A stretch of DNA of 64,000 bases from Candidatus Polarisedimenticolaceae bacterium. Lineage in GTDB: Bacteria; Acidobacteriota; Polarisedimenticolia; Polarisedimenticolales; DASRJG01. Location of the stretch: the NCBI GenBank assembly GCA_036376135.1, contig DASVAW010000167.1, forward strand, positions 13,811 to 77,810. Direction: 5' to 3'. The first letter of the stretch is position 1. Each line of letters starts with the position of its first letter. The notes under the pieces are model-generated. The model searched no databases. It worked only from the letters and a program-made list of their open reading frames with translations, and had not been told where the DNA came from. This document shows, one piece after another, positions 37,464 to 50,095 of this stretch. Position numbers and translations under genes: made by a program.

Positions 37464-39320
37464 ATGCCGCCGCAGGAGTTCGGACGTTATCGGGTCGAGC
37501 GGGAGTTGGGCCGCGGGGCCATGGGCGCCGTCTTTCTCGCGCACGATCCGGAGATCGACCGACGCGTCGCCGTCAAGACGATCCAGGTCTTCTCCGGACT
37601 TCCCGACGCCGAACGCGAGCAGGCGCGGCGACGGTTCCTGACCGAGGCCCGCAGCGCGGGCAGGCTCGTCCACCCCGGCATCGTCACGATCTTCGACGTC
37701 GGGGAGGCCGACGGCGCGCCGTGGATCGCGATGGAGTACATCGAGGGGCAGACGCTCGACGCCTTCTGCCGCCGCGACCGCCTGCTCGGTGTGGACGTCG
37801 TCGTCGACATCGTCGCGGGGCTCGCCGAGACGCTCGCCTACGCACACCAGGCCGGCGTCGTGCACCGGGACATCAAGCCGACCAACCTGATCCGGACCGG
37901 CGAACGTGCCGTCAAGATCATGGATTTCGGCCTCGCGCAGTCGGGGACGGCGGGACGGACCCAGGACGGGCATCTGCTCGGGACCCCGAACTACATGGCC
38001 CCCGAGCAGATCCGCGGCGACCGCGCCGACGCGCGCACCGACCTGTGGTCGCTCGCGGTCGTCCTCTTCGAGCTGCTCACGGGAGAGAAGCCGTTCGCCG
38101 GGGACTCGGTCTCGTCGGTGCTGTACCGCGTCGTGCACGAGCCGCCGCGGGAGCTCGGCCCCCACCTCGAGCGCGTCCCCGTCGCGCTCGCCGGCTTCCT
38201 GAAGAAGGCGCTCGCCAAGGACCCGCAGGCCCGTTTCGCGGACGGCGCCGCCTTCGCGTGGGCCCTGCGCGAGGCGAGGCGGGCGACGGCCGACCGCGCG
38301 ACGCCGGCGGCGCGGAGCGTCGCGGCCCCCGCGGCGGAGCCGGCGGGATCCGGGCGGTCGTCGTTGCTTCCGTACCTGTTCGGTGCGGCCGCGGTGATCG
38401 CGTCGGTCGTCGGGGTGCTCGCCTGGCGTCATGCCGAGAGCCGCAGGCAGGCGGCGGCCTTCTTCGAGACGACCGTTCGCGCGGAACCGTCCGAGGCCGC
38501 GGTGACTCTCGACGGCGCCCCGCTCGCGGACCCTCGGCTTCGCGTGCCGTCCGCGGGCCCTTTCCCGAGGGTTTCCGCGGCGGCGGGGTGCCGGCGGGTC
38601 GAGCACCTCGTGGCCCCGTCGGACGCGGGGCGCGAGATCGTTCTCGTTCTCGACCCTGAGAAGGCGGCGGTCGCGGTCGACGCGGGCGTCGACGGCGCGG
38701 CGCTGCGCGTCAACGGCGAGTCCGCCGGAACGTCACCTCGCGAGATCGAGCTCGATCTGTGCCGCGAGAACCGCCTCGAGGCCGCAGCCGACGGGTACAC
38801 CCCCGCCGCGGTGGTGGTCCCTGCGGGAGCGTCTCCCAAGGACGCGCGCGGCGCCGCGGCGGCGCTGCGGCTGGCGGCCATTCCGACCGGGCGCATCGTC
38901 GTTCCCGCGCCCGGCTCCCCGGTGCGATGGCTCGTCGACGGGAAACCCGCGCAGCGGGAGGACGGATCGCTGCGCGTCCCCGCGGGACGTCGCGAGGTGC
39001 GCGCCGTCAACGAAGACACCTTCGTGGACGTGACGGCGGTCGTCGACGTTCCGCCGGACGGCCACGTCGACGCCGACCTGCGCGTGCCGCCGCTCGCGGA
39101 GCTTCTCGTGCAGGCCTTCCCGCCGAACGCGAAGGTCTACGTGCGCCGCGGCGGCGGCTGGCGCTACCTCGACGACGTTCCACTCGAGCGACAGATCGCC
39201 GCCGGTTCCTACGAGTTGCGGGTCGAGTACGTTCCGACGGGGGCGACCCAGGAACGCAAGGTCTCGCTTCGACCGGGCGAGAACCCTCCGCTAAGATTCG
39301 CGTTCGAGTCGAAGCGATGA
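37464..39320 (+). CDS. Hanks-type Ser/Thr protein kinase with a TM helix and PEGA-like extracytoplasmic C-terminal region
   Basis: GRGAMGAV, VAVK, HRDIKPTN, DFG and APE motifs. The TM helix is LLPYLFGAAAVIASVVGVLAW. The C-terminal half is rich in beta-sandwich-like repeats. Confidence 0.85.
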   Translation: MPPQEFGRYRVERELGRGAMGAVFLAHDPEIDRRVAVKTIQVFSGLPDAEREQARRRFLTEARSAGRLVHPGIVTIFDVGEADGAPWIAMEYIEGQTLDAFCRRDRLLGVDVVVDIVAGLAETLAYAHQAGVVHRDIKPTNLIRTGERAVKIMDFGLAQSGTAGRTQDGHLLGTPNYMAPEQIRGDRADARTDLWSLAVVLFELLTGEKPFAGDSVSSVLYRVVHEPPRELGPHLERVPVALAGFLKKALAKDPQARFADGAAFAWALREARRATADRATPAARSVAAPAAEPAGSGRSSLLPYLFGAAAVIASVVGVLAWRHAESRRQAAAFFETTVRAEPSEAAVTLDGAPLADPRLRVPSAGPFPRVSAAAGCRRVEHLVAPSDAGREIVLVLDPEKAAVAVDAGVDGAALRVNGESAGTSPREIELDLCRENRLEAAADGYTPAAVVVPAGASPKDARGAAAALRLAAIPTGRIVVPAPGSPVRWLVDGKPAQREDGSLRVPAGRREVRAVNEDTFVDVTAVVDVPPDGHVDADLRVPPLAELLVQAFPPNAKVYVRRGGGWRYLDDVPLERQIAAGSYELRVEYVPTGATQERKVSLRPGENPPLRFAFESKR

Positions 39321-40816
39321 ATCGTCGTCGATGCGGGTTCGTCCGGGGGGCTGTTGCCGCGACGTTGGTCGTCGCGTGCGCGGGCCCGGTGTACGCGCAG
39401 CAGCCCGCGCGCGATCCGGCCGCGGCCGAGCGCGAGTACCGGGTCGCGCGACGACTGGCCGCCGAAGGTTCGCCGGAGGCGGCGGCCGCGCTGGCGCGCG
39501 TCGTCAGCCTCGACCCCGCGGGTCCGTGGGCCGACGACGCGCTCGTGGAGCAGGCGTTGCTCGAGGGGCTTCCCGGGTGGCCCGAAGCGCTCGGTGCGAT
39601 CCCCGAAGAAGCGATCCGCCGTGCGATTGTCCCGCTCGAGCGCGTCGTTTCGGCGCTCCCCGCCTCCGACCGCGCACCCGAAGCGCGTTATCGCACCGCT
39701 CTGGCGAAGCTCGAACCGCTCGCCGGTCGGGATCCGGTGAAGGCGCGTGCGGAGCTGCTCGCACTCGCGTCGACGGGTGCGGAGGGCGCGTGGACGCTCG
39801 CCTCGCGCTACGCGCTCGGCTGGCTCGACGAGCAGGATGGGGCGCACGAGCGCGCCTACGGCGCCTACCTGCGTCTTCTGGTCGATCACCCGGGGACCGA
39901 GGCCGCGGCGAAGGCGGCGCAGGGCGCGGGAAGGGTGGCGATGCGGCGCGGCCAGTTCGGGCCCGCCGCGGCGCTGCTCCAGGAGGCCGTCGACGCGACG
40001 GGCTCCTCGGCTCCCGAGGCGGCGCCCCTCCGGGACGCCGCGGTGCGGAACCTGCGGCGTTCCGCCTTCGCGGTGACGCGCTGGCCGGCGACGACCCCCA
40101 CGAAGTGGAACTCGGCGATCAAGGGTGCGCTCGCGGCGGTCGCGCTTCCCGGAGGGGAGGTCCTCGTCGCCGACCGGCGCGCCGGGGCGATCGTGCGCTT
40201 CGACCGGTCGGGGCGCGAATCGGCGCGCATCGCGCTCGACGAGCTCGAGGCGCTCGCCGTCGACCCCTTCGGACGCGCCTGGGTCGCGGCCGGGGAGCGG
40301 ATCTACGTGCTGCGCGGCGACCAGCCGGTTCCCGTCGCGAGCCAGGGGGCCTTCGCTCCGGCGGGTGCCCTCGCCGTCGACGCCGCCGGGAGGATCTATC
40401 TCACCGATCGCCGCGGCGATCGGGTCGCCCGCGTCCAGCCCGGAGCACCGTCGCCGGAGCTCCTTCGGGAGCGCCGAGGGGCGGCGATCGCGGCGCTCGC
40501 GTGGAGCGGGGGACGGCTCCTGGCGCTCGAGGAGCGCACCGGTCGCGTCCTGGACGTGCGTCCGGACGGAACCGACGAGGTGGTCGGGACCGTCGCGGCG
40601 TCCTCGACTCCGTCGTTGTCCGTCGACGCGGCGGGGCAGATCGCCGTGCTGGACGCGCGTGCGGGCGCGATCGTGCTCCTGGGCGTGGACGGTCAGCCCA
40701 AGGATCGCCTCGTGCTCGAGGCGGCCGGCGTCGGGCGCGTCGCCGCGCTGACGTTCGGTCCGGACGGCGCCCTCGATGTCGTCGACGCGGCCGGCGTCGT
40801 GACGAGGTTCCCGTGA
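39317..40816 (+). CDS. Secreted TPR-like / NHL-type beta-propeller repeat protein
   Basis: A signal peptide, then an Ala-rich helical N-terminal half. The C-terminal half repeats LAVD..GR.Y..D motifs (GALAVDAAGRIYLTDRRGDRV, LSVDAAGQIAVLDARAGAI). It has an ATGA overlap with the kinase. Confidence 0.6.
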   Translation: MNRRRCGFVRGAVAATLVVACAGPVYAQQPARDPAAAEREYRVARRLAAEGSPEAAAALARVVSLDPAGPWADDALVEQALLEGLPGWPEALGAIPEEAIRRAIVPLERVVSALPASDRAPEARYRTALAKLEPLAGRDPVKARAELLALASTGAEGAWTLASRYALGWLDEQDGAHERAYGAYLRLLVDHPGTEAAAKAAQGAGRVAMRRGQFGPAAALLQEAVDATGSSAPEAAPLRDAAVRNLRRSAFAVTRWPATTPTKWNSAIKGALAAVALPGGEVLVADRRAGAIVRFDRSGRESARIALDELEALAVDPFGRAWVAAGERIYVLRGDQPVPVASQGAFAPAGALAVDAAGRIYLTDRRGDRVARVQPGAPSPELLRERRGAAIAALAWSGGRLLALEERTGRVLDVRPDGTDEVVGTVAASSTPSLSVDAAGQIAVLDARAGAIVLLGVDGQPKDRLVLEAAGVGRVAALTFGPDGALDVVDAAGVVTRFP

Positions 40817-42789
40817 GGACGCTTGGAGGTTTCGCGGCGGGGCTGCTCGGCATCGCGCTGTTCCTCGCGCCGATCCCTGCGCGAGGGCAAGCGCAAGGCT
40901 CAGCCGAGCTCGAGGCGGCCCGGGTCGAGCTCGAGGCGGCCCGCTTCGACAAGGCGCTCGCGGTGCTCGACGCCCTGCTGGCCCGCCCGGACCTCGAGCC
41001 TTCGATCGCCGGGTCGGCTCTGGCGCTTCGGGCGCAGGCCCGCGTGGCGACCGGAGACCTCGGCCGTGCGGAGCAGGACTGGAAGCGCCTCCTCCTCCTT
41101 CGACCCGACTACGAGCCGGACCCGACGACGACCGGTCGGAAGGCGCGGGAGCGTTTCGATCGGGTCGCGTCGACCGTCGTGGGGGGGCTGAAGTTCGAGA
41201 TCGATCCTCCCGGTGCCCGCATCGCCGTGGACGGGAGGCTCGTCACTCCCGCCGCCGACGGGACGCTGCGCCTTCCCGCCGGAGACCGCCGGATCGAGGT
41301 CGAGCATCCGGGCTTCGACCCGGCCTCGCTCGGGGCCACCGTCATCGCGGGGGACATCGTGCCCGTCCGCGTGCGCCTCGTGCCGAACGCGCGTTCGGTC
41401 GTCCTGCGCACCGAGCCCGACGGTGTGGAGGTCCGCCTCGACGGGACGCTGCTCGGGGTCACGGCGCGGCCGTCCGAGTCCGCGCCCGCGTCCGCCCCCG
41501 CGTTCGCGCGGGCCGCTCGCCTCGAGATCGCGGATCTCCCGCTCGGCGAACACGTCTTCGAGCTCACGAAACCGTGTTACCGGACGACGCGCGTCCGCGT
41601 CCAGGTCCAGGTCGATGTGACCGATCGAGGAGCGATCGCGCTCGAGACCGTCGCGCTCGACCCCGCGCGTGCCGTCGTCGCGGTCCGCGGGAAACCGGAA
41701 GGGGCGGAGGTCCGGGCGGACGGCGTCGCGCTCGGACGCATCCCCCTCGAGGGAGCCGCGCTTTGTGCGGGGACGCGCGCGTTCGAGGTACGCGCCGGGG
41801 GGCGCGTCGTGTGGCGCGAGCGGGTCGAGCTCCCCGAACAGGGAACGGCGACGCTGGAGGTCGCGCCGCGGCCTCAGGCCGTCCTGCTCGGCTCCGCGAC
41901 GTGGCCGGCCGCCCTTCGCGAGCTCGAAGGGGCGTTCGGGGTCGAGGCGCGCGCGGAGTTGCCGGCGGGAACCGACCTGGGAGCCGCGGAGGGTTGGGCG
42001 TCGGTGACGCTTCCTGCGGACACGGACCTCGCAGTGGCGGTCCTTCCCGCCGGAGCGGGGCAGGGGGTCGGCAGGGTGGTCCTGTACAGCCCGATCCTGC
42101 GAACCCTCGAGACGCTCGAGGGCGCCGCGCTGTCGATCCGTCGTCCGTCCCGGGTTCGTCCCACGCTCGGGTGGCGCCTGGCGGATCTCTCCGGTGGCGG
42201 CGTCGTCGTGGCGGAGGTGATTCCCGGCGGTCCTGCGTCCGCGGCGGGGGTCGTCGCCGGCTCCGGGGTCGCCGTCCTCGCGGGAAGGGTCGTCGCGTCC
42301 GCGGCGCAGGCCCACGCCGTGGTCGCCGGGCTGCCTCCGGGCTCGCCGGTCACGATCGATCTCGTCGTGCCGGGGGAAGCCGAGCCGCGAAAGGTCGAAG
42401 CGACGCTTGGCGGCGCCCCCGTCTTCGCGCCGAAGACCGAGGGTCCCGGCGGCGCCGCGATTGCTGCCGCGTGGGGGGCGGTGGATGGCGTCGGGGCCGA
42501 GGATCGCCGGATCGCCCTGGCCCAGCTGGGGAGCCTGCTGCTCGTCGCGGGTCGGGCGGAGGCGGCGGCCGACGCGTTCTCGCGTGCGGCGTCCCCGCCG
42601 ACGACCGAGCCCGGCGCGATCGACTACCTCCTCGGACGCGCCCTCGCCGCCGCGGGGCGCGAGGCCGAGGCCCGCGCCGCTTTCTCACGCGTGCGCGAAG
42701 GGAGCTCGCGCGCCGAAGGGGGCGACGGCCCGCCGCTCGCGCCCGCCGCCGCCGACCACCTCGCCGATCTCGGAGTGGGGGGCCGCTGA
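40813..42789 (+). CDS. Secreted TPR - PEGA repeat - PDZ domain protein
   Basis: PEGA-type motifs are present (PPGARIAVDG, EPDGVEVRLDG, KPEGAEVRADG). There is a PDZ-like segment (GVVVAEVIPGGPASAAGVVAGSGV). It has a GTGA overlap with the upstream gene. Confidence 0.6.
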   Translation: MRTLGGFAAGLLGIALFLAPIPARGQAQGSAELEAARVELEAARFDKALAVLDALLARPDLEPSIAGSALALRAQARVATGDLGRAEQDWKRLLLLRPDYEPDPTTTGRKARERFDRVASTVVGGLKFEIDPPGARIAVDGRLVTPAADGTLRLPAGDRRIEVEHPGFDPASLGATVIAGDIVPVRVRLVPNARSVVLRTEPDGVEVRLDGTLLGVTARPSESAPASAPAFARAARLEIADLPLGEHVFELTKPCYRTTRVRVQVQVDVTDRGAIALETVALDPARAVVAVRGKPEGAEVRADGVALGRIPLEGAALCAGTRAFEVRAGGRVVWRERVELPEQGTATLEVAPRPQAVLLGSATWPAALRELEGAFGVEARAELPAGTDLGAAEGWASVTLPADTDLAVAVLPAGAGQGVGRVVLYSPILRTLETLEGAALSIRRPSRVRPTLGWRLADLSGGGVVVAEVIPGGPASAAGVVAGSGVAVLAGRVVASAAQAHAVVAGLPPGSPVTIDLVVPGEAEPRKVEATLGGAPVFAPKTEGPGGAAIAAAWGAVDGVGAEDRRIALAQLGSLLLVAGRAEAAADAFSRAASPPTTEPGAIDYLLGRALAAAGREAEARAAFSRVREGSSRAEGGDGPPLAPAAADHLADLGVGGR

Positions 42790-42796
42790 CCCGGCC

Positions 42797-43417
42797 TCAG
42801 TACTCGCCCAGCCCGGGGTTGTTCGCGAGCGCCACGTAACGAAGCGCCTGCTGGGTGTCGCCGATGCGCTGCCGCGAGCGCGTCTCCGAAGCGGCGATCT
42901 GATCGAGGACGTACCCGACGTCGTCGGCACGACCGCTGTTGATGCGGCGCTCGAGACCCGCGAGCTCGGTCCGGAGCACGTCGCGGGTGACGGCGTCGGG
43001 GACGAGCGATTTCCGCGACGAAGCCTCGAGCGCCTCGATCTCCTGGCGGACGAGGGCGCGTGCCTGCTCCGCGTCGATCCCGGCCGGAGGCGTGGCCCCC
43101 TGCGCGACCTCGTCGGGCCGGCCGGCCGACCCGGCGACATACCCGACGCCACCGACGAGGGCGGCGGCGAGGAGTCCCGCGGCGAAGGCGGCCCAGGACG
43201 GGACGGTGCGGCGCGGCGTCACCACCACGATTCTCGGCGCGACAGGAACCTCGGGCGCCGCGTCGGCGAGGAGCGCCCTCGTCGCGGCGAGCCTCTCCAG
43301 CGTCGCGGAGCACGACGCGCACCCCGCGAGGTGCGCCTGCACACAGGCGCGATCTTCCGCCGAGACGTCGTCGTAGACGAGCGCGACGAGACGGGACTGG
43401 AACAACTCGCAGGCCAT
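42797..43417 (-). CDS. Anti-sigma factor (zf-HC2, single TM)
   Basis: The N-terminal motif is H-x3-C-x2-C (AHLAGCASCS), followed by a TM helix (WAAFAAGLLAAALVGGVGYVA). It lies immediately downstream of the ECF sigma gene. Confidence 0.75.
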   Translation of the reverse strand: MACELFQSRLVALVYDDVSAEDRACVQAHLAGCASCSATLERLAATRALLADAAPEVPVAPRIVVVTPRRTVPSWAAFAAGLLAAALVGGVGYVAGSAGRPDEVAQGATPPAGIDAEQARALVRQEIEALEASSRKSLVPDAVTRDVLRTELAGLERRINSGRADDVGYVLDQIAASETRSRQRIGDTQQALRYVALANNPGLGEY

Positions 43418-43426
43418 GGCCGACTC

Positions 43427-44044
43427 CTAGACGCGGACGCCCTGCCGTTCGAGGGCGCCGCGCATCGATTCGAGCGCGAAGTACATGCGGGACTTCACGG
43501 TGCTTTCGGGGAGGCCGAGCACCTCGGCGATCTCCCGGAACTTCAGCCCTTCGTATTCCTTGAGGACCACGACCTCCCGCTGCTCGGTCGGGAGGGACTC
43601 GAGCACCCTCCGCACCGCCGCGCGGCGCTCTTCGGCCTCGAGGGCCGCCTCCGGCTGCTCGTCTTCGGGGGCGACCGCCGCGGGTTCCGGGGCCGGGTCA
43701 TCCGCAGCCGGGCGCGGGTGGACGAGGATGCGATCCCATCGCCGGTTGCGGCGAGCACGGTCCCTGCACAGGTTCAGGGCGATCTGGTACATCCAGGTCG
43801 AGAACTTCGCCCCCGGCCGGTAGTGGCGCGCCCGATCGAGCACGCGGAGGAAGGTCTCCTGACAGACGTCCCGCGCCTCGTCGTCGCGCCCGACCAGGCG
43901 CAGGACGAACCGGAACAGCGGCTGCTCCCATCGGGCGACGAGAGCTCCGAGCGAATCGAGGTTCCCCGCCCTCAGGGCCAGGACGAGGTCCTCGTCGGTG
44001 GGTGACTCCAAGCGACCGTTCCTCCGTGGGTCCGGACGCCTCAT
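43427..44044 (-). CDS. ECF-type RNA polymerase sigma factor
   Basis: Region 2 is DVCQETFLRVL...FSTWMYQIALNLCRD. Region 4 is VVVLKEYEGLKFREIAEVLGLPESTVKSRM. An alternative TTG start at 44011 has a better GGAGG Shine-Dalgarno site. Confidence 0.85.
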   Translation of the reverse strand: MRRPDPRRNGRLESPTDEDLVLALRAGNLDSLGALVARWEQPLFRFVLRLVGRDDEARDVCQETFLRVLDRARHYRPGAKFSTWMYQIALNLCRDRARRNRRWDRILVHPRPAADDPAPEPAAVAPEDEQPEAALEAEERRAAVRRVLESLPTEQREVVVLKEYEGLKFREIAEVLGLPESTVKSRMYFALESMRGALERQGVRV

Positions 44045-44381: not shown

Positions 44382-45698
44382 ATGACGCTGAGCACGGCCG
44401 CCGAGGATCGAAGGAGGACGGCCCCCCGCGCGGAGGACTGGGAGGCGGTCGCCCGGCGTCAGGACGAGGAGATCCGCAGCTTGTGCGCGGAGGTCCTGGA
44501 GCGTTACGAGGAGGCGACGTTCGTCTACCGTCTGGCGGAGCGGATCGCGGCGGAACGGGGAGAATCGGCCATCGCGCGGATGGTCGTGGACGACGTCGCC
44601 CAGGTCCTCGGCGCGCCGCGCGGCGAGGTGTGGCTGCAGGGCAACGACGCCTTCACGCTCTCCGTGGCCGTCGGAACCCCCGGGGAGGGAGCGGCGGACA
44701 CCGACCTCGAGATGCTGGCCCGGGCGCGCCGCGGCCAACCGTGGGTGCGCGACGGGGACATCCCCACGGTGGCGGTGCCGCTCCCTTCGCCGTCGGGTCC
44801 GCCGCTGGGGGTGCTCGTCCTGCGCGGACGCCGCAGCGGGCGTCCCTATCGCGCCGGCGAGGTCAAGCTCCTCGGCGCGATCGGCTCCCTCGCGTCGGCC
44901 TTCCTGCGCAACGAGCGACTCAGCGAAAAGGCGCGCCAGGCGGAGCTCCGCCAGCGCGAGGACGAGCTTGCCCGCCAGGTCCATCGCGGCCTGCTCCCGC
45001 ACCAGGACCCGGAGTTCGAGGGGCTCGACGTCTCGGGCGGGTTCCGCGCCGCCGAGGTCGTCGGCGGCGACTACTACGGCTACGTGCCGATGGCCGACGG
45101 GAGTCTCGGGATCGCGATGGCCGACGTGTCCGGGCACGGCGTCGGCGCGGCGCTGTACATGGCGACCGCCAAGGGAGCGATCCAGTCCGAGGGTCGGCGG
45201 ATCCTGTCTCCCGCCGAGTTGCTCGCCCAGACCAACGAGGTGCTCCTGGGCGACTTCTCCGGCATGGACATGTTCGCGACCAGCGTGTTCGTCCGCTTCT
45301 ATCCGGGGGCGCGCCGGTTCGTCTACTCGAACGGGGGGCACAATCCGCCGTTCCTCGTGCGCAGCTCCGGAGAGGTCGTGCGTCTCGAGAGGGGAGGGCC
45401 CGCCCTGGGGATCCTCCCGCGCGTCCGCTACCTCGAGGAGTCGTTCCCCTTCGCCGAGGGGGACGTCCTGATCCTCTACACCGACGGGATCGTCGAGGCC
45501 CGTGACGCCGAGCAGCGGTTCTACGGACTCGATCGACTGGTCGAGGAGGTGAATGCCTCGCGGGCCCTTCCCGCGCCCGCGATCCGCTCCCGGGTGATCG
45601 CCGACCTCGAGCGGCACGTCGAAGGGCTGCCCACGCGCGACGACGTCACGCTCGTCGTCGCGCGCGCGATCGCCTCGGGGGCCGAGGTCTCGGGATGA
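44382..45698 (+). CDS. GAF domain - PP2C (SpoIIE/RsbU-type) serine phosphatase
   Basis: GGDYYGYV...IAMADVSGHGVGAALYMA...LYTDGIVEA are PP2C motifs. A GAGGAG Shine-Dalgarno site lies upstream of the ATG. Confidence 0.85.
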   Translation: MTLSTAAEDRRRTAPRAEDWEAVARRQDEEIRSLCAEVLERYEEATFVYRLAERIAAERGESAIARMVVDDVAQVLGAPRGEVWLQGNDAFTLSVAVGTPGEGAADTDLEMLARARRGQPWVRDGDIPTVAVPLPSPSGPPLGVLVLRGRRSGRPYRAGEVKLLGAIGSLASAFLRNERLSEKARQAELRQREDELARQVHRGLLPHQDPEFEGLDVSGGFRAAEVVGGDYYGYVPMADGSLGIAMADVSGHGVGAALYMATAKGAIQSEGRRILSPAELLAQTNEVLLGDFSGMDMFATSVFVRFYPGARRFVYSNGGHNPPFLVRSSGEVVRLERGGPALGILPRVRYLEESFPFAEGDVLILYTDGIVEARDAEQRFYGLDRLVEEVNASRALPAPAIRSRVIADLERHVEGLPTRDDVTLVVARAIASGAEVSG

Positions 45699-46072
45699 GC
45701 GCCGGAAAGCGGATCCTGATCGTCGACGACGACGCGTTCATCCGTCGCCCCCTGGAGTTCATCCTCCGCGAGGAAGGGTTCGAGGCGTTCACCGCCTCCG
45801 ACGGAGAGGAATGCCTGCGCCGGGTCGGGGACGTCCGTCCCGACCTGATCTTCCTCGACGTCATGATGCCGGGTCGCGACGGGTTCGCCGTCTGCGGGGC
45901 CCTCAAGAGCGACCCGGACCTCCGGTGCATTCCCGTGATCCTGCTCTCGGCCCGGGGCATGGAGTCCGACCGGCAACGCGGCCTGGACGTCGGAGCCTCG
46001 GACTTCATGACCAAGCCTTACTCCCCCACGGAGCTGCTGCGTCGCGTGCGCGAGCTCCTTTCCGGAAACTGA
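45695..46072 (+). CDS. Single-domain response regulator (CheY-like receiver)
   Basis: ILIVDDD, the phospho-acceptor context LIFLDVMMPG, LLSA and TKPY. It overlaps the phosphatase gene by 4 nt. Confidence 0.9.
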   Translation: MSAGKRILIVDDDAFIRRPLEFILREEGFEAFTASDGEECLRRVGDVRPDLIFLDVMMPGRDGFAVCGALKSDPDLRCIPVILLSARGMESDRQRGLDVGASDFMTKPYSPTELLRRVRELLSGN

Positions 46073-46082
46073 GGTGGCGCGT

Positions 46083-46271
46083 ATGGCGGAGCTCCGGGAC
46101 GAACGCGTCGCCGCGATCCGGCCCCTGGATCGGGCCGAGATCGAGCGGCGCGTCCGCGATCGCCTCGAGGGGTTGCTCGCCGGTCGGAGCGGGACGGCGC
46201 GTTCCGGCCTCGTACCGATCTCCGCGGCGGAGCTCGTCCGCCTCGCGGCGCCGATGACGTCGCGGAACTGA
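46083..46271 (+). CDS. Hypothetical 62-aa protein (start could be the GTG at 46074)
   Basis: GC3-rich codons in this frame, with a GGTGG Shine-Dalgarno-like site 5 nt upstream. It is wedged between the receiver and the GTPase-kinase with gaps of 14 nt or less. It has no recognisable domain. Confidence 0.4.
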   Translation: MAELRDERVAAIRPLDRAEIERRVRDRLEGLLAGRSGTARSGLVPISAAELVRLAAPMTSRN

Positions 46272-46285
46272 AGGGGACGGCCCGG

Positions 46286-48361
46286 ATGGCGCAGTGGAGC
46301 CGCGCGGATCGGACGCTGCACGCGAAGCTCGTCTACTACGGGCCCGCGCTCGGCGGGAAAACCACGACCCTTCGCGCGATCCACCGCCTCACCGACCCCG
46401 AGGGGCGGAACCCGCTGCTCTCGCTGGCGACCGCCGACGACCGCACGCTCTTTTTCGACCTGCTCCCCTTCGAGCTCGGATCGATCCTCGGTTATCGCGT
46501 CGCGCTGAAGCTGTACACCGTGCCGGGGCAGGTGCGGTACGACGCGACGCGTCGCGTCGTCCTGGCCGGCGCCGACGCCGTCGTGTTCGTCGCCGACGCC
46601 TCGCCCGGTCGCGCGGCGGACGCGAGGGCCAGCTGGGAAGACCTCCGCCGCAACCTCGGGGCGAACCGCATCGAGGGCGCGGGTTTCCCGATCCTCGTCC
46701 AGGCGAACAAGCAGGACGTGGAAGGCGCCGCGGACGCCGCGGAGGTCGCCGGATGGCTCGACGTCAGGCCGCATGTCGTGCGCGGCACGAGCGCGCGGAC
46801 GGGGGAGGGCGTCCTCGACGTCTTCGTTGCGGCCTCGAAGGCGATGCTCTCGCGCCTCGTTTCCCTCGCCGACGAGCGAACGCGGCGCGAGATCGATCCC
46901 GCGCAGCTCGACCGTCAGGTCGAGGCCGCGTTCGCCCCGTACCGGGGGCGTCCGGGCCCGGCCGCCGACGCGCCGGAGCGACGCTCGACGATCCCGCTGG
47001 ACGAGGCCGACCTGCTGGGAAGCGCGGTCCGCGTGGGAACGCAGCTCGGCGCGGAGCTGGCCGACGCGCGGGCCCGGGGCGCCCGCCTCGAGCGGGAGGC
47101 CGACGCGCTCCGCACGCTCACCGAGATGCTCCGCCGGGTGGACGCGACCTTCGATCGGGACGCGATCGCCGACGGCGCGCTCGCCGCGGCGGGGGCGGTG
47201 CTCGGGGCGGCGCGCGCGGAGGTCTGGAGGCTCGACCCGGAGACGGGCCCGAGGCTCGAGCGATCCTGGGGCGACGGCTCGGAGCGACTCGCAGGACCCG
47301 AGGGCGCGTCCTTCATCCGGGCGCTGCTCGAGGCCGGCTCGACGTGCGCGGCGGACGACCTCGCGTGCGAGACGAAGGGCGCGCTGCCGCGCGCCGCCTT
47401 CGCGTGCGCGCCGGTGGAAGGCCCCGCGCGCCGGCTGCTGGCGGTGCACGTGCCCGCCCCGGAGCGGCGTTTCGACGCGGCGGACCTCCGGTTCCTCTCG
47501 ACGGTGGCCGGGCATCTTGCGGCGGGATTCGACAAGGCCGGCGTGTGGGCGGAGCTCGTGGCCCACCGCGAGCGCCTGGAGGTCGCCGTGGCGGCGCGGA
47601 CGAAGGCGCTGGCGCGCGCCTACGAGGAGCTGCGCTCGCTCGATCGGATGAAGGACCGCTTCCTCTCGAGCGTCTCCCACGAGATGCGCACGCCGCTGAC
47701 GGCGATCGTCTGCTCGGCGAGCTTCCTGCGGGACTACGGGGGAGCTCCCGAGGAGCGGCGCGAGATGGCCGAGAACGTCCTGCGGGGCGCCGGCGCGCTC
47801 GAGCGCCTGCTCGACGGCCTGTTCCGCATCGCGCGTCTCGAGCGCGGGGGCGAGCCGCTGGGCGCGAGCCGTCTGTCCGTGCCCTCCATCGTCGGACGCG
47901 CGATCGAGCTCGCGGGGAATCCCCGGGTCGACGTCGCGCTGGCGGAGGATCTGCCCGCGGTGACCGGGGACCCGGATCTCGCTCCGCGCGCGCTCGCCAA
48001 CCTGCTGGACAACGCCCGCAAGTTCTCGCCGCCGGACTCGTGCATCACCCTCCGCGTGGAGGCGTGCGGACTGCGGATCGGGAAACGCACGGCGGAGGCG
48101 GTGGCGTTCACCGTGCTCGACCGCGGGCCGGGTGTTCCCGAGGCCGATCTCGAGCGGCTGTTCGAGGCCTTCGAGCAGGGAGGGGAGACGCTCACGGCGA
48201 AGCCGGCCGGAGTCGGGCTCGGGCTCTACGAGGCGCGCCTCGCGGCGCGCCGTCACGGCGGGTTGCTGCGCTACACGCCGCGGGCGGGCGGCGGCTCGGA
48301 GTTCCGACTGGTGCTTCCGGCGGCGACCGCGTCCGCGGACCTCGAGGCGGTTCGTGGCTGA
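46286..48361 (+). CDS. MglA-type small GTPase fused to a GAF - HisKA - HATPase_c histidine kinase (691 aa, single ORF)
   Basis: GTPase motifs: G1 GPALGGKTT, switch I DRTLFFDLLPF, MglA-type G3 YTVPGQ, G4 NKQD, G5 TSARTG. Kinase motifs: H-box SHEMRTPLTAI, N-box LLDNARKF, G1 DRGPGV, G2 GVGLGL. There is no stop or frame change between the halves. Confidence 0.85.
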   Translation: MAQWSRADRTLHAKLVYYGPALGGKTTTLRAIHRLTDPEGRNPLLSLATADDRTLFFDLLPFELGSILGYRVALKLYTVPGQVRYDATRRVVLAGADAVVFVADASPGRAADARASWEDLRRNLGANRIEGAGFPILVQANKQDVEGAADAAEVAGWLDVRPHVVRGTSARTGEGVLDVFVAASKAMLSRLVSLADERTRREIDPAQLDRQVEAAFAPYRGRPGPAADAPERRSTIPLDEADLLGSAVRVGTQLGAELADARARGARLEREADALRTLTEMLRRVDATFDRDAIADGALAAAGAVLGAARAEVWRLDPETGPRLERSWGDGSERLAGPEGASFIRALLEAGSTCAADDLACETKGALPRAAFACAPVEGPARRLLAVHVPAPERRFDAADLRFLSTVAGHLAAGFDKAGVWAELVAHRERLEVAVAARTKALARAYEELRSLDRMKDRFLSSVSHEMRTPLTAIVCSASFLRDYGGAPEERREMAENVLRGAGALERLLDGLFRIARLERGGEPLGASRLSVPSIVGRAIELAGNPRVDVALAEDLPAVTGDPDLAPRALANLLDNARKFSPPDSCITLRVEACGLRIGKRTAEAVAFTVLDRGPGVPEADLERLFEAFEQGGETLTAKPAGVGLGLYEARLAARRHGGLLRYTPRAGGGSEFRLVLPAATASADLEAVRG

Positions 48362-48800
48362 GCGCTTCACCGCCTCCCTCGCGATCGCGAGCGATCCGGC
48401 GCAGTTCCGCGACGCGCGGGGATGGCTGTCCGCCCTCGCGAAACGCGCCGGCCTCGACGAAGGCGCCGCGCACGACGTGCTCGTCGCGTTCACGGAGGCG
48501 TGCGCGAACGCCTGCCGGCACGCCTACGGCGGCCGGCGCGACGGCCGGATCGAGATCGACGTACGGCACGAAGGGGGTGCCCTGGAGATTCGCGTGCGCG
48601 ACTTCGGCCGCCGGTTCGATCCCGACGGCGTGCCGGAGCCCGAGTTCGACGACCCGCGCGAGGGCGGCTACGGCGTGTTCCTCATGCGCAATCTGATGGA
48701 CGACGTGCGGTTCGGCGTCGACGGTCCGGGGACGGAGGTCGCCATGATCAAGCGCGCCGCCGTGCCCGCCGCCGTCGCGCGAACGGGGGGAGGTTCCTAG
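48354..48800 (+). CDS. RsbW/SpoIIAB-like anti-sigma regulatory factor (stand-alone HATPase_c Ser kinase)
   Basis: FTEACANACRHAY (N-box), VRDFGRRFDP and GGYGVFLMRNLMD in a 148-aa protein. The GTG start overlaps the upstream gene by 8 nt. Confidence 0.8.
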   Translation: MAERFTASLAIASDPAQFRDARGWLSALAKRAGLDEGAAHDVLVAFTEACANACRHAYGGRRDGRIEIDVRHEGGALEIRVRDFGRRFDPDGVPEPEFDDPREGGYGVFLMRNLMDDVRFGVDGPGTEVAMIKRAAVPAAVARTGGGS

Positions 48801-48803
48801 ATC

Positions 48804-49733
48804 ATGGCGGAACTCGTGAGACGGATCGCGCCGGCGGCGGGGGAGGTCCCCGACCTCGCCGAGTTGTGCCGGATCCACGACCTCGGGCTCGAGCTGATCG
48901 AGTGCTCGGACGACCTCGACCACCTGCTCGATCGGGTCCTCGAGGAGTACGAGCGGCGGCTCGCCGAGCTGCCGGGCGACGCGCTCGACGGGCGCGCGAC
49001 CGAGCGGGGCGCGGACTCGCAGCGCAAGCTGCGCGCGCTGGTGATGTTCGCGACCCAGGCGTCGGCGCTGCGTGCGAAGGCCCTCGCCGCCGACGAGATC
49101 CGGCGTCGAGCCGACGCCGTCGAGGCGGGGAACACGCGCCTCAACGGCGTGCTCGCCGCGCTCCAGACCGGTGTCCTGATCGTGTCGGCGGACGGGATCG
49201 TCCGGAAGGCCAATCGGGCCGCGGCCGCGATGTTGTGCGGGGATCCGGAAGCGACCTGCGAGGGAACGCGCACGCCCGCCTTCCTCGACGACGCGCCGCA
49301 CGACGCGGAGTCCGAGGTGGTGCTCGCGCGGGGGCCGGGCGGGCGCACCGTCCTGCTGGTCGCGCGCCGCTCGCTCGGCCCCGTCGACGCGGACGAGGTC
49401 GTGACGCTCAGCGACGTGACGCGGCGCTACGCCGAGCTGGAGGAACGCCACCGCCTCGAGAAACTCGCCGACCTCCTCCGAACCCTCGGCGTCCTCAGCC
49501 ACAAGATCAACAACCCCCTCACCGCGCTCCTGGGCCGCGCGCAGATCCTCCGCGCCAAGGCGGAGACCGATCCTTCGGTCGCGAAGGCGGCGCAGGTCAT
49601 CGAGGAGTCCGCCATCCGGATCGCGGACCTCATCCGGGAGCTCGCGCGCGTCGTCAAGGAGGGGCGGCAGGAGGCCGTGGACCGCGTCCTCGACATGCAG
49701 CACGGCTCCGAGCCCGACGGAGGACGTCCATGA
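48804..49733 (+). CDS. PAS - DHp (HisKA) protein lacking a catalytic ATP-binding domain
   Basis: PAS-like segment VLAALQTGVLIVSADGIVRKANRAAAAML. H-box LGVLSHKINNPLTALLGRAQIL. The ORF ends about 60 aa after the H-box, with no N/G1/G2 boxes. Confidence 0.75.
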   Translation: MAELVRRIAPAAGEVPDLAELCRIHDLGLELIECSDDLDHLLDRVLEEYERRLAELPGDALDGRATERGADSQRKLRALVMFATQASALRAKALAADEIRRRADAVEAGNTRLNGVLAALQTGVLIVSADGIVRKANRAAAAMLCGDPEATCEGTRTPAFLDDAPHDAESEVVLARGPGGRTVLLVARRSLGPVDADEVVTLSDVTRRYAELEERHRLEKLADLLRTLGVLSHKINNPLTALLGRAQILRAKAETDPSVAKAAQVIEESAIRIADLIRELARVVKEGRQEAVDRVLDMQHGSEPDGGRP

Positions 49734-50095
49734 GAGTGGAACGTCTCGACCGGAGCGGGATCGCCAGCCTTCGGCTGACCGGAGCGGACGCCCTCGACAT
49801 GGCGAACGCCCACGACGTCAAACGCGGATGCCTCGAGGCGGTCGAGGACGGGCTCGACGTCGTCGTCGATCTCTCCGAGGTCGACTTCGTCGACTCGGCG
49901 GGGGTCGGCGTGCTGGTCAGCGTGTACAAGCGCACCCGCCTGCGCGGCCGGCGCGCGGCGTTCGTCGGCGTCCGGCCGGGGGTGCTCGCCGTGCTCGCGA
50001 TCCTGCGCCTCGATCAGATCTTCGAGATCCGCCCCGACGCTCCGGCGGCCCTCCGCTCGATCGCGGTGGGGATCGGCGACCCCGCGGACGTCTGA
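49730..50095 (+). CDS. STAS domain anti-sigma-factor antagonist (RsbV/SpoIIAA-like)
   Basis: VVVDLSEVDFVDSAGVGVLVSVYK contains the conserved phosphorylatable Ser in DSAG. It has an ATGA overlap with the upstream gene. Confidence 0.85.
   Translation: MRVERLDRSGIASLRLTGADALDMANAHDVKRGCLEAVEDGLDVVVDLSEVDFVDSAGVGVLVSVYKRTRLRGRRAAFVGVRPGVLAVLAILRLDQIFEIRPDAPAALRSIAVGIGDPADV

Follow-up and report, generated by a model that had tools for sequence, protein, structure and literature searches.

The window analysed here, a 64-kb stretch of DNA, comes from a metagenome-assembled genome (MAG) of a Polarisedimenticolaceae bacterium (Acidobacteriota) and carries a gene whose single product unites an MglA-type small GTPase domain (G domain) with a GAF domain and a histidine kinase. 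The G+C content of the window is ~72%, so long spurious open reading frames (ORFs) are common nearby. All positions are those of the 64-kb window and residue numbers are those of the 691-residue protein (Table 1). The MAQWS N-terminus is kept across the family, with Q3 and W4 invariant in an alignment of 33 members, which confirms the placement of the start codon. A preliminary description of this DNA had read the gene as one uninterrupted ORF that runs from a complete MglA G domain through a coiled segment and a GAF-like region into a full kinase core; every motif it quoted was found, no internal stop is present, and matches extend along the whole length of the chain. The domain scan proposed there returned small-GTPase, HisKA and HATPase_c models, the first as a Pfam Arf match to residues 70–180 (E 1.7e-5) that exceeds the gathering score. 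An AlphaFold2 (AF2) monomer computed from the 33-sequence family alignment has a mean predicted local distance difference test score (pLDDT) of 78 and contains no transmembrane helix; the protein is predicted to be soluble.

Table 1. The kinase gene, its modules and its neighbours in the 64-kb window.
Feature	Position	Strand	Basis
MglA-GAF-histidine kinase	46286..48361	+	Single ORF, 691 aa, ATG start, no internal stops
G domain, Group-1 MglA type, residues 1–195	46286..46870	+	MglA alignment, Foldseek, family conservation
Conserved helical extension, residues 196–222, TRRxxD...L..Q...AFAPY	46871..46951	+	AF2 helices, conserved T199/R200
Variable linker, probably disordered, residues 223–242	46952..47011	+	pLDDT <50, 22% mean identity
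Long helix/coiled coil, residues 243–290, invariant L254, R267, E271, R276	47012..47155	+	AF2, alignment
GAF domain, least conserved module, residues 291–397	47156..47476	+	GAF_2 match, AF2 strand/helix pattern
Signalling helix into DHp/HisKA, residues 398–521, phospho-acceptor H465 in SHEMRTPLT	47477..47848	+	HisKA, AF2
Catalytic ATP-binding domain, residues 522–681	47849..48328	+	HATPase_c, invariant motifs
zf-HC2 anti-sigma factor	42797..43417	-	zf-HC2 E 7e-7, conserved synteny
Extracytoplasmic function (ECF) sigma factor, divergent	43427..44044	-	Sigma70_r2/r4
PP2C (SpoIIE/RsbU-type) Ser phosphatase	44382..45698	+	SpoIIE E 1e-49, start from orthologue alignment
Single-domain response regulator, 125 aa	45695..46072	+	Response_reg E 1e-28
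Conserved small ORF, 62 aa, C-terminal Asn invariant	46084..46271	+	Same-position ORFs in relatives
RsbW-like Ser kinase/anti-sigma-type, 148 aa, GTG start	48354..48800	+	HATPase_c_2 E 6e-34, RsbW E 6.5e-18
DHp-only protein (HisKA without ATPase domain), 309 aa	48804..49733	+	HisKA E 2.6e-10, orthologue alignment
STAS anti-anti-sigma-type, 121 aa	49730..50095	+	STAS E 8e-19, alignment

The MglA proteins of Myxococcus xanthus and Thermus thermophilus, both known from crystal structures, align with residues 7–191 from one end to the other (E = 1e-39, 42–43% identity), and the next best families in the PDB (Arl3, Arf, Rab) reach only E 4e-7, a comparison that the preliminary description had proposed and that rules out a generic P-loop NTPase or a weak GTPase match. 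A Foldseek search with the AF2 G domain gave template modelling (TM) scores of 0.83–0.89 against MglA structures, with 0.89 and 42% identity for MglA-GTPgammaS/MglB (6izw_A). Group-1 MglA proteins are marked by an Arg beside the G2 Thr, a TVPGQ G3 motif and a regular [NT]KxD G4 motif, whereas Groups 2–5, including the conservon GTPase CvnD, have GTPGQ and lack the G2 Arg, with NxFD as the G4 motif of Group 2 (PMC4316618). In the window protein the P-loop GPALGGKT (19–26) fits GxxxxGK[ST], with G19, G24, K25 and T26 invariant; switch I holds an invariant D52-R53-T54 that aligns with R53-T54 of M. xanthus MglA; G3 is an invariant T78-V79-P80-G81-Q82; G4 is NKQD (141–144), fitting [NT]KxD with N141, K142 and D144 invariant; and G5 includes A170. 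In the 33 family members the P-loop, R53, T54, TVPGQ and NKxD never vary, and among 92 relatives at a greater distance they are almost constant. The Thr-for-Asp exchange in G3, put forward earlier as typical of MglA, is thus borne out and is joined by the intrinsic Arg, R53. By these motifs the G domain carries all the sequence marks of Group-1 MglA and is predicted to be catalytically complete; a conservon-type GTPase is ruled out by R53, TVPGQ and NKQD at G2, G3 and G4. It is also the most conserved module: in the 33-member alignment its mean pairwise identity is 67%, compared with 53–55% for the kinase domains, 39% for the GAF domain and 22% for the linker, and 53 of its 195 columns are invariant. 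With this conservation and its invariant motifs, the switch looks functional and a relic is disfavoured.

In the extension that follows the G domain, AF2 places helices at 197–202 and 205–220 (pLDDT ~80–84). This segment of ~25 residues is common to the fused proteins and to split forms described below, including the G proteins of Myxococcus, and is lacking in canonical MglA. Beyond the 20-residue linker, which varies in length, a long helix (243–284) leads into the GAF domain and a continuous helix (398–462) leads from it into the DHp histidine. Residues 291–397 form a confident alpha/beta domain in the model, with a strand/helix pattern consistent with GAF. The GAF_2 match to residues 290–414 of the window protein (E 1.8e-5 to 4.6e-5, 24.1–25.4 bits) lies just below the gathering cut-off of 28.6, which is exceeded in aligned relatives (52.8 bits in locus L013 and 36.9 bits in L019); residues 291–397 are assigned as a GAF domain on a profile score that is marginal here and clear in those relatives. 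HisKA (455–521, E 3e-14, 53.1 bits against a cut-off of 26.9) and HATPase_c (561–680, E 8.5e-21, 74.9 bits against 26.4) are matched well above threshold, and the kinase core has 30% identity to HK853 structures by Foldseek. With H465/E466, the N box (N576), the G1 box (D612/G614/G616) and the G2 box (G642/G644/G646) invariant in the 33 members, the core has all its catalytic boxes and is predicted to be intact.

The fused family is well populated rather than rare. Clusters were counted at the 90% identity level and the counts are lower bounds: at least 120 protein clusters share 48–85% identity with the window protein across ≥96% of its length. An NCBI MAG of Candidatus Polarisedimenticolaceae contains an identical protein, which bears only the name “ATP-binding protein” because NCBIfam has no dedicated model for MglA or for the G domain–kinase architecture; the generic small_GTP model is the only match, and it falls below its cut-off. 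Automated pipelines tag some other members as “histidine kinase” together with “MglA” or “SRP receptor beta”. When one genome of each GTDB species was scanned, more than 600 stretches matched; related loci are cited by L numbers. Among the best 80 loci, uninterrupted fused ORFs occur in Polarisedimenticolaceae, Thermoanaerobaculia, Aminicenantes and Holophagae as well as in the complete genome of Acidobacteria bacterium Mor1 (CP011806). The fused form is present in about 40 species-level genomes, and in Acidobacteriota several kinase architectures begin with this G domain.

When 1.84 billion cluster representatives were searched exhaustively by HMMER with only the G domain as the query, 1,244 matched at E ≤ 1e-30, the best 150 of which are almost all proteins of 300–830 residues with the G domain at residues 1–190. 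The C-terminal modules recognisable in 92 long relatives were HATPase_c (33), HisKA (25), GAF_2 (25) and PAS (1), and nothing else; many of the long relatives with no recognised C-terminal module may be truncated metagenomic genes. The architecture of the window protein, G-GAF-HK (HK, histidine kinase), occurs in at least two subfamilies, alongside G-PAS-HK, G-PAS-HK-REC (REC, receiver; in Holophaga foetida DSM 6591 and Geothrix oryzisoli) and, in Vicinamibacteria, a G domain followed by 300–400 residues of unassigned type. The closest G domain is a separate protein of 227–251 residues in Myxococcus, Corallococcus, Archangium and a Bdellovibrionales MAG, and its gene is followed by one for a PocR-HisKA-HATPase_c kinase, the stop and start codons either sharing 4 nt or lying side by side; such pairs with a 4-nt overlap are found throughout the Myxococcaceae. 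In a rough neighbour-joining tree, built without bootstrap, all kinase-linked G domains fall together as the sister group of canonical MglA. The Rosetta-stone link between GTPase and kinase that the preliminary description had suggested is upheld: as judged from sequence and gene order, the fused form of Acidobacteriota and the split form of Myxococcaceae and Bdellovibrionales are a true Rosetta-stone pair, and this pattern argues that G domain and kinase act as one unit.

Other multidomain proteins that begin with an MglA domain were seen in Vicinamibacteria and others (L024–L038) and in Thermoanaerobaculia (L045, L048, L053, L056, L057, L065, L071, L074, L083). One class, of 500–610 residues, has a C-terminal half with no Pfam family and one weak HisKA match; in a second, of ~350–385 residues, the G domain falls with canonical MglA in the rough tree, and the C-terminal parts of both classes match no Pfam family. 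Upstream of the split genes of Myxococcaceae, an invariant CACTATAAAAAC box lies in non-coding DNA ~60–100 nt before the G-protein start (L062:6740–7000, L085:5743–6003, and L063, L076, L081, L084) together with further conserved blocks such as CATTCC. The CACTATAAAAAC region has no Rfam match and is probably a promoter or regulatory region; no small ORF like the 62-residue one of the acidobacterial locus is present upstream of these genes.

The resemblance to MglA is confined to the G domain. MglA is a stand-alone protein of ~195 residues that usually lies beside its Roadblock GTPase-activating protein (GAP), MglB, and controls cell polarity, whereas the corresponding domain here makes up the first 195 of 691 residues and is followed by an extra helical extension, a GAF domain and kinase domains, well beyond the single-domain, ≤240-residue form of MglA. 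A 2014 survey of prokaryotic Ras-like GTPases left out all sequences of more than 240 residues, so that of the 488 sequences in the MglA clade of its Table 1, 449 “small” ones were considered and 39 long ones went unanalysed (PMC4316618). M. xanthus MglB (confirmed identical to PDB 6h5b_B) was used as a probe for the missing partner; as a single sequence of limited sensitivity, it had no match at E ≤ 0.1 either in the window or in the ±7-kb flanks of 80 related loci, and its sole match at E ≤ 1 has an E value of 0.53, in L013. No Robl_LC7 domain was found among the called neighbours, and neither a CvnB Roadblock nor a CvnC DUF742 protein among the neighbours in the window, L001 and L003. A coupled MglB lies within four genes of the gene in 390 of the 449 small MglA proteins (PMC4316618), and no such GAP was found in the region searched here. 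The contrast drawn in the preliminary description, that MglA normally stands alone with a Roadblock GAP, holds in this respect, but the partners at this locus are of the PP2C, RsbW-like and STAS types, and the protein is not an MglA-type polarity switch.

These partner genes keep their order in ten species-level loci (L001–L009, L019), and the position of the ECF sigma gene is kept, besides the window, in nine of the ten (L001–L006, L008, L009, L019). The PP2C stop overlaps the receiver start by 4 nt (ATGA), the GTG start of the RsbW-like gene overlaps the kinase stop by 8 nt, and no terminator-like site was found on the + strand between 43900 and 50400. The receiver named earlier as a possible target of the kinase is real, and a receiver lies directly upstream of the kinase gene in two subfamilies (L001–L009, L019 and L010–L012, L014, L017). 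Because the second of these has kept the same arrangement, the 45695–46072 receiver is probably the cognate one. The overlap of the PP2C stop with the receiver start suggests that phosphatase and receiver form a complex, in place of the usual fused REC-PP2C protein. In the STAS protein the phosphorylatable Ser of FVDSAG is conserved, and PP2C, RsbW-like kinase and STAS protein are predicted to make up a complete partner-switching set. The preliminary description had missed this set because a spurious 557-residue ORF (48422–50095) masks the genes for the RsbW-like, DHp-only and STAS proteins. To read this ORF as one gene that ends in a STAS domain is wrong: it is a high-GC artefact, and the three real genes beneath it lie in other frames or in its last third.

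Three further products of the operon were noted. The small ORF upstream of the kinase recurs at L003:9794–9988 and in the gap between receiver and kinase genes of L004–L009 and L019 (~60–75 residues), with an N-terminal RPL[TD]xx[ED]L[DE]xR, a variable middle, a C-terminal IxxA[ED][LF]VR and an invariant final Asn; it is absent in L001 and L002, where the gap is 5 nt, and has no match in Pfam or NCBIfam. It may serve specifically to regulate the G domain or the kinase. The DHp-only protein has an invariant histidine in LSHKINNPLT, a conserved N-terminal PDLAELCRIH and a weak PAS match, and occurs in short versions of 186–208 residues in L007 and L009; it might be a phosphotransfer protein, a target held by the RsbW-like protein or one half of a split kinase. 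The PP2C protein has a conserved N-terminal domain of ~170 residues that matches no family.

Four known systems invite comparison. SofG, an orphan MglA paralogue of M. xanthus compared here by its description, likewise has a Group-1 G domain that contains the intrinsic Arg and is extended by further sequence, and lacks a coupled MglB (PMC4316618), but is neither joined to nor coupled with a kinase and works with bactofilins in localising the pilus motor. The actinobacterial conservons (AGPS) bring a histidine kinase, GAF and an MglA-family GTPase into one system, their set comprising the CvnA kinase, the CvnB Roadblock protein, the CvnC DUF742 protein and the CvnD GTPase, with or without the CvnF GAF protein (PMC13343842). 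Conservons are the only established bacterial case of a Ras-like GTPase and a histidine kinase signalling together. Their functions reside on separate polypeptides, with Roadblock and DUF742 proteins as GAP and guanine nucleotide exchange factor (GEF), Group-2 motifs and no response regulator, and they are confined to Actinomycetota; the family described here, in contrast, is a covalent fusion with Group-1 motifs and a cognate-looking receiver, in which no Roadblock or DUF742 protein was found, and occurs in Acidobacteriota and Myxococcota. The parallel with conservons drawn in the preliminary description was right about their separate polypeptides, but given the two sets of motifs it is an analogy, and conservons are not the split form of this family.

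ROCO proteins (Roc-COR GTPase with a protein kinase, such as LRRK2, and bacterial Roco) also hold a Ras-like G domain and a kinase in one chain. They resemble the window protein in logic only, in that a nucleotide state acts in cis on a dimeric enzyme, whereas Roc is not of the MglA family, requires the COR dimerisation domain and is joined to a Ser/Thr rather than a His kinase. Membership is ruled out by the MglA type of the G domain and by the lack of any Pfam match to Roc or COR in the window protein. The downstream genes recall Bacillus cereus RsbK-RsbY (for RsbK, PMC4574943), Pseudomonas HptB-HsbR-HsbA and Vibrio SypE-SypA, in which a kinase and a receiver feed PP2C, STAS and an RsbW-type kinase. 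The common trait is a two-component pair that feeds a partner switch. In those systems the receiver is fused to the phosphatase and no GTPase input is known, whereas at this locus the receiver has a gene of its own, translationally coupled, and the DHp-only protein is added.

We propose, with a probability of roughly 55%, that the G domain is a cis-acting GTP/GDP switch through which the output of the kinase to the receiver next to it and to the partner-switching module is gated. The G domain would act as a small GTPase on a tether, with the kinase of the same chain as its effector: in one of its nucleotide states, the switch regions and the C-terminal extension would dock on the coiled-coil/GAF/DHp dimer and shift the kinase/phosphatase balance of the HisKA core, whose HEMRT H-box fits a bifunctional enzyme. 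A tethered effector is favoured over a rigid helix by the 20-residue linker between extension and coiled coil, with its low pLDDT and variable length, and the existence of the split form implies that the interaction can also work in trans. GTP would be hydrolysed with the intrinsic R53 and Q82; since no MglB is coupled, hydrolysis and exchange may be intrinsic, or may be aided from elsewhere in the dimer or by the 62-residue protein. Phosphoryl groups would then pass from the kinase to the adjacent receiver, which would control the co-translated PP2C; the phosphatase would set the phosphorylation state of the STAS protein and thereby the choice of partner of the RsbW-like kinase. The conserved gene order, the overlapping stop and start codons and the lack of an internal terminator support this downstream path.

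Several points weigh against this proposal. Nucleotide binding, hydrolysis and an effect on autophosphorylation are all predictions, and the pTM of the AF2 monomer (predicted TM score, 0.37) means that the geometry between domains is not fixed by the model. The N-terminal position of the G domain hints at an input role without proving it, and the current conservon model places the kinase upstream of the GTPase, with the direction of signalling reversed. No GAP or GEF was found, with an MglB probe that covered the window and ±7-kb flanks and would reach neither an unlinked MglB nor RomR or RomX. Lastly, the adjoining ECF sigma factor already has its own zf-HC2 anti-sigma factor, so the target of the RsbW-like protein is not given by the locus; the DHp-only protein is an alternative target.

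The direction of signalling is also what separates our proposal from an output role of the G domain, which we regard as unlikely although it is the main alternative. Here the GAF domain would sense a ligand, the kinase dimer or its phosphorylation state would act as GAP or GEF for the G domain, and the GTP-bound form would recruit effectors or position the kinase, as MglA-GTP does at the cell pole. Such an order follows the conservon model, with kinase-like CvnA upstream of the GTPase CvnD, and agrees with the way MglA-GTP binds and localises its effectors; the flexible linker would let the G domain reach other partners, and the operon offers candidates of undefined role in the 62-residue protein, the N-terminal domain of PP2C and the DHp-only protein. 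Against this, the complete phosphotransfer apparatus and the conserved adjacent receiver already supply an output, the N-terminal modules of sensor kinases are typically inputs, and no polarity or motility genes are conserved beside the kinase gene.

It is still less probable that the G domain is a constitutively nucleotide-bound structural or dimerisation module without a regulatory cycle, which would leave the protein a GAF-regulated kinase. Some bacterial G domains do play structural roles, and the lack of a GAP or GEF nearby would fit one; yet the conservation of R53, Q82 and both switch regions is strict, more so than nucleotide binding by itself would require, the G domain is under stronger conservation than the GAF domain or the kinase core, and in Myxococcota the G protein is kept as a separate gene coupled to a different type of kinase. 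An origin of the fusion in faulty metagenome assembly or gene calling, for instance two genes joined by error or through a frameshift, is refuted in spite of the MAG origin of the window and of spurious ORFs such as the 557-residue one nearby: the architecture is uninterrupted in >120 clusters from NCBI, JGI, ENA and Logan, in the complete Mor1 genome (696 aa) and, as the PAS-HK-REC form, in H. foetida DSM 6591 and G. oryzisoli, and conservation runs unbroken over the junction in the 33-member alignment, so that independent assemblies and isolate genomes clear the concern about a chimera and the fusion is real.

A wider version of the cis-acting switch is a possibility that we hold more tentatively: the whole MglA-like G-domain clade may have been recruited as a cytoplasmic input module of histidine kinases, with GTP/GDP directly gating His-Asp phosphotransfer. 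What sets the nucleotide state could be the pool of guanine nucleotides or a dedicated new regulator, for which the 62-residue protein is a candidate, and at this locus the module would also gate the downstream Ser-phosphorylation partner switch.

Bacterial Ras-like GTPases are still regarded as rare stand-alone switches, and a paper from 2026 still gives MglA polarity modules and conservons as the bacterial G-protein examples, while the crosstalk of these GTPases with two-component systems is unsettled even for conservons. The preliminary description had raised the possibility that the architecture is uncharacterised: no description of an MglA-histidine kinase fusion or operon pair was found in open-access full text, and we provisionally regard the family as undescribed; with >120 clusters it is not rare. 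The MglA family extends beyond single-domain proteins, and the long sequences left out in 2014 represent a large, coherent kinase-linked clade. One operon brings together the logic of G proteins, of His-Asp transfer and of Ser/Thr partner switching. The presence of a Ras-like switch at the front of a sensor kinase in a conserved family suggests that phosphorylation signalling in bacteria can be under the direct control of GTP/GDP switching. In the wider reading above, this would be the first Ras-like switch to act as a sensor domain for a two-component kinase, and it would not depend on the GAP logic, based on Roadblock proteins, of MglA and conservons. As an intact MglA-type switch and a complete histidine kinase share one chain, nucleotide control of kinase output is testable with one purified protein; the split form is at hand in the culturable and genetically tractable Myxococcus and Corallococcus, and fused forms in the culturable Holophaga and Geothrix.

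Upstream of the divergent pair of ECF sigma and anti-sigma genes, the window carries a block of genes for NHL-repeat and PEGA-PDZ proteins at ~38759–42789 (+), with borders that are approximate because ORFs overlap in this high-GC DNA. The block is syntenic in distant relatives (L001:1654–6916 and L003:1359–6609), and in L001 and L003 only it includes a gene for a Ser/Thr kinase-PEGA protein.

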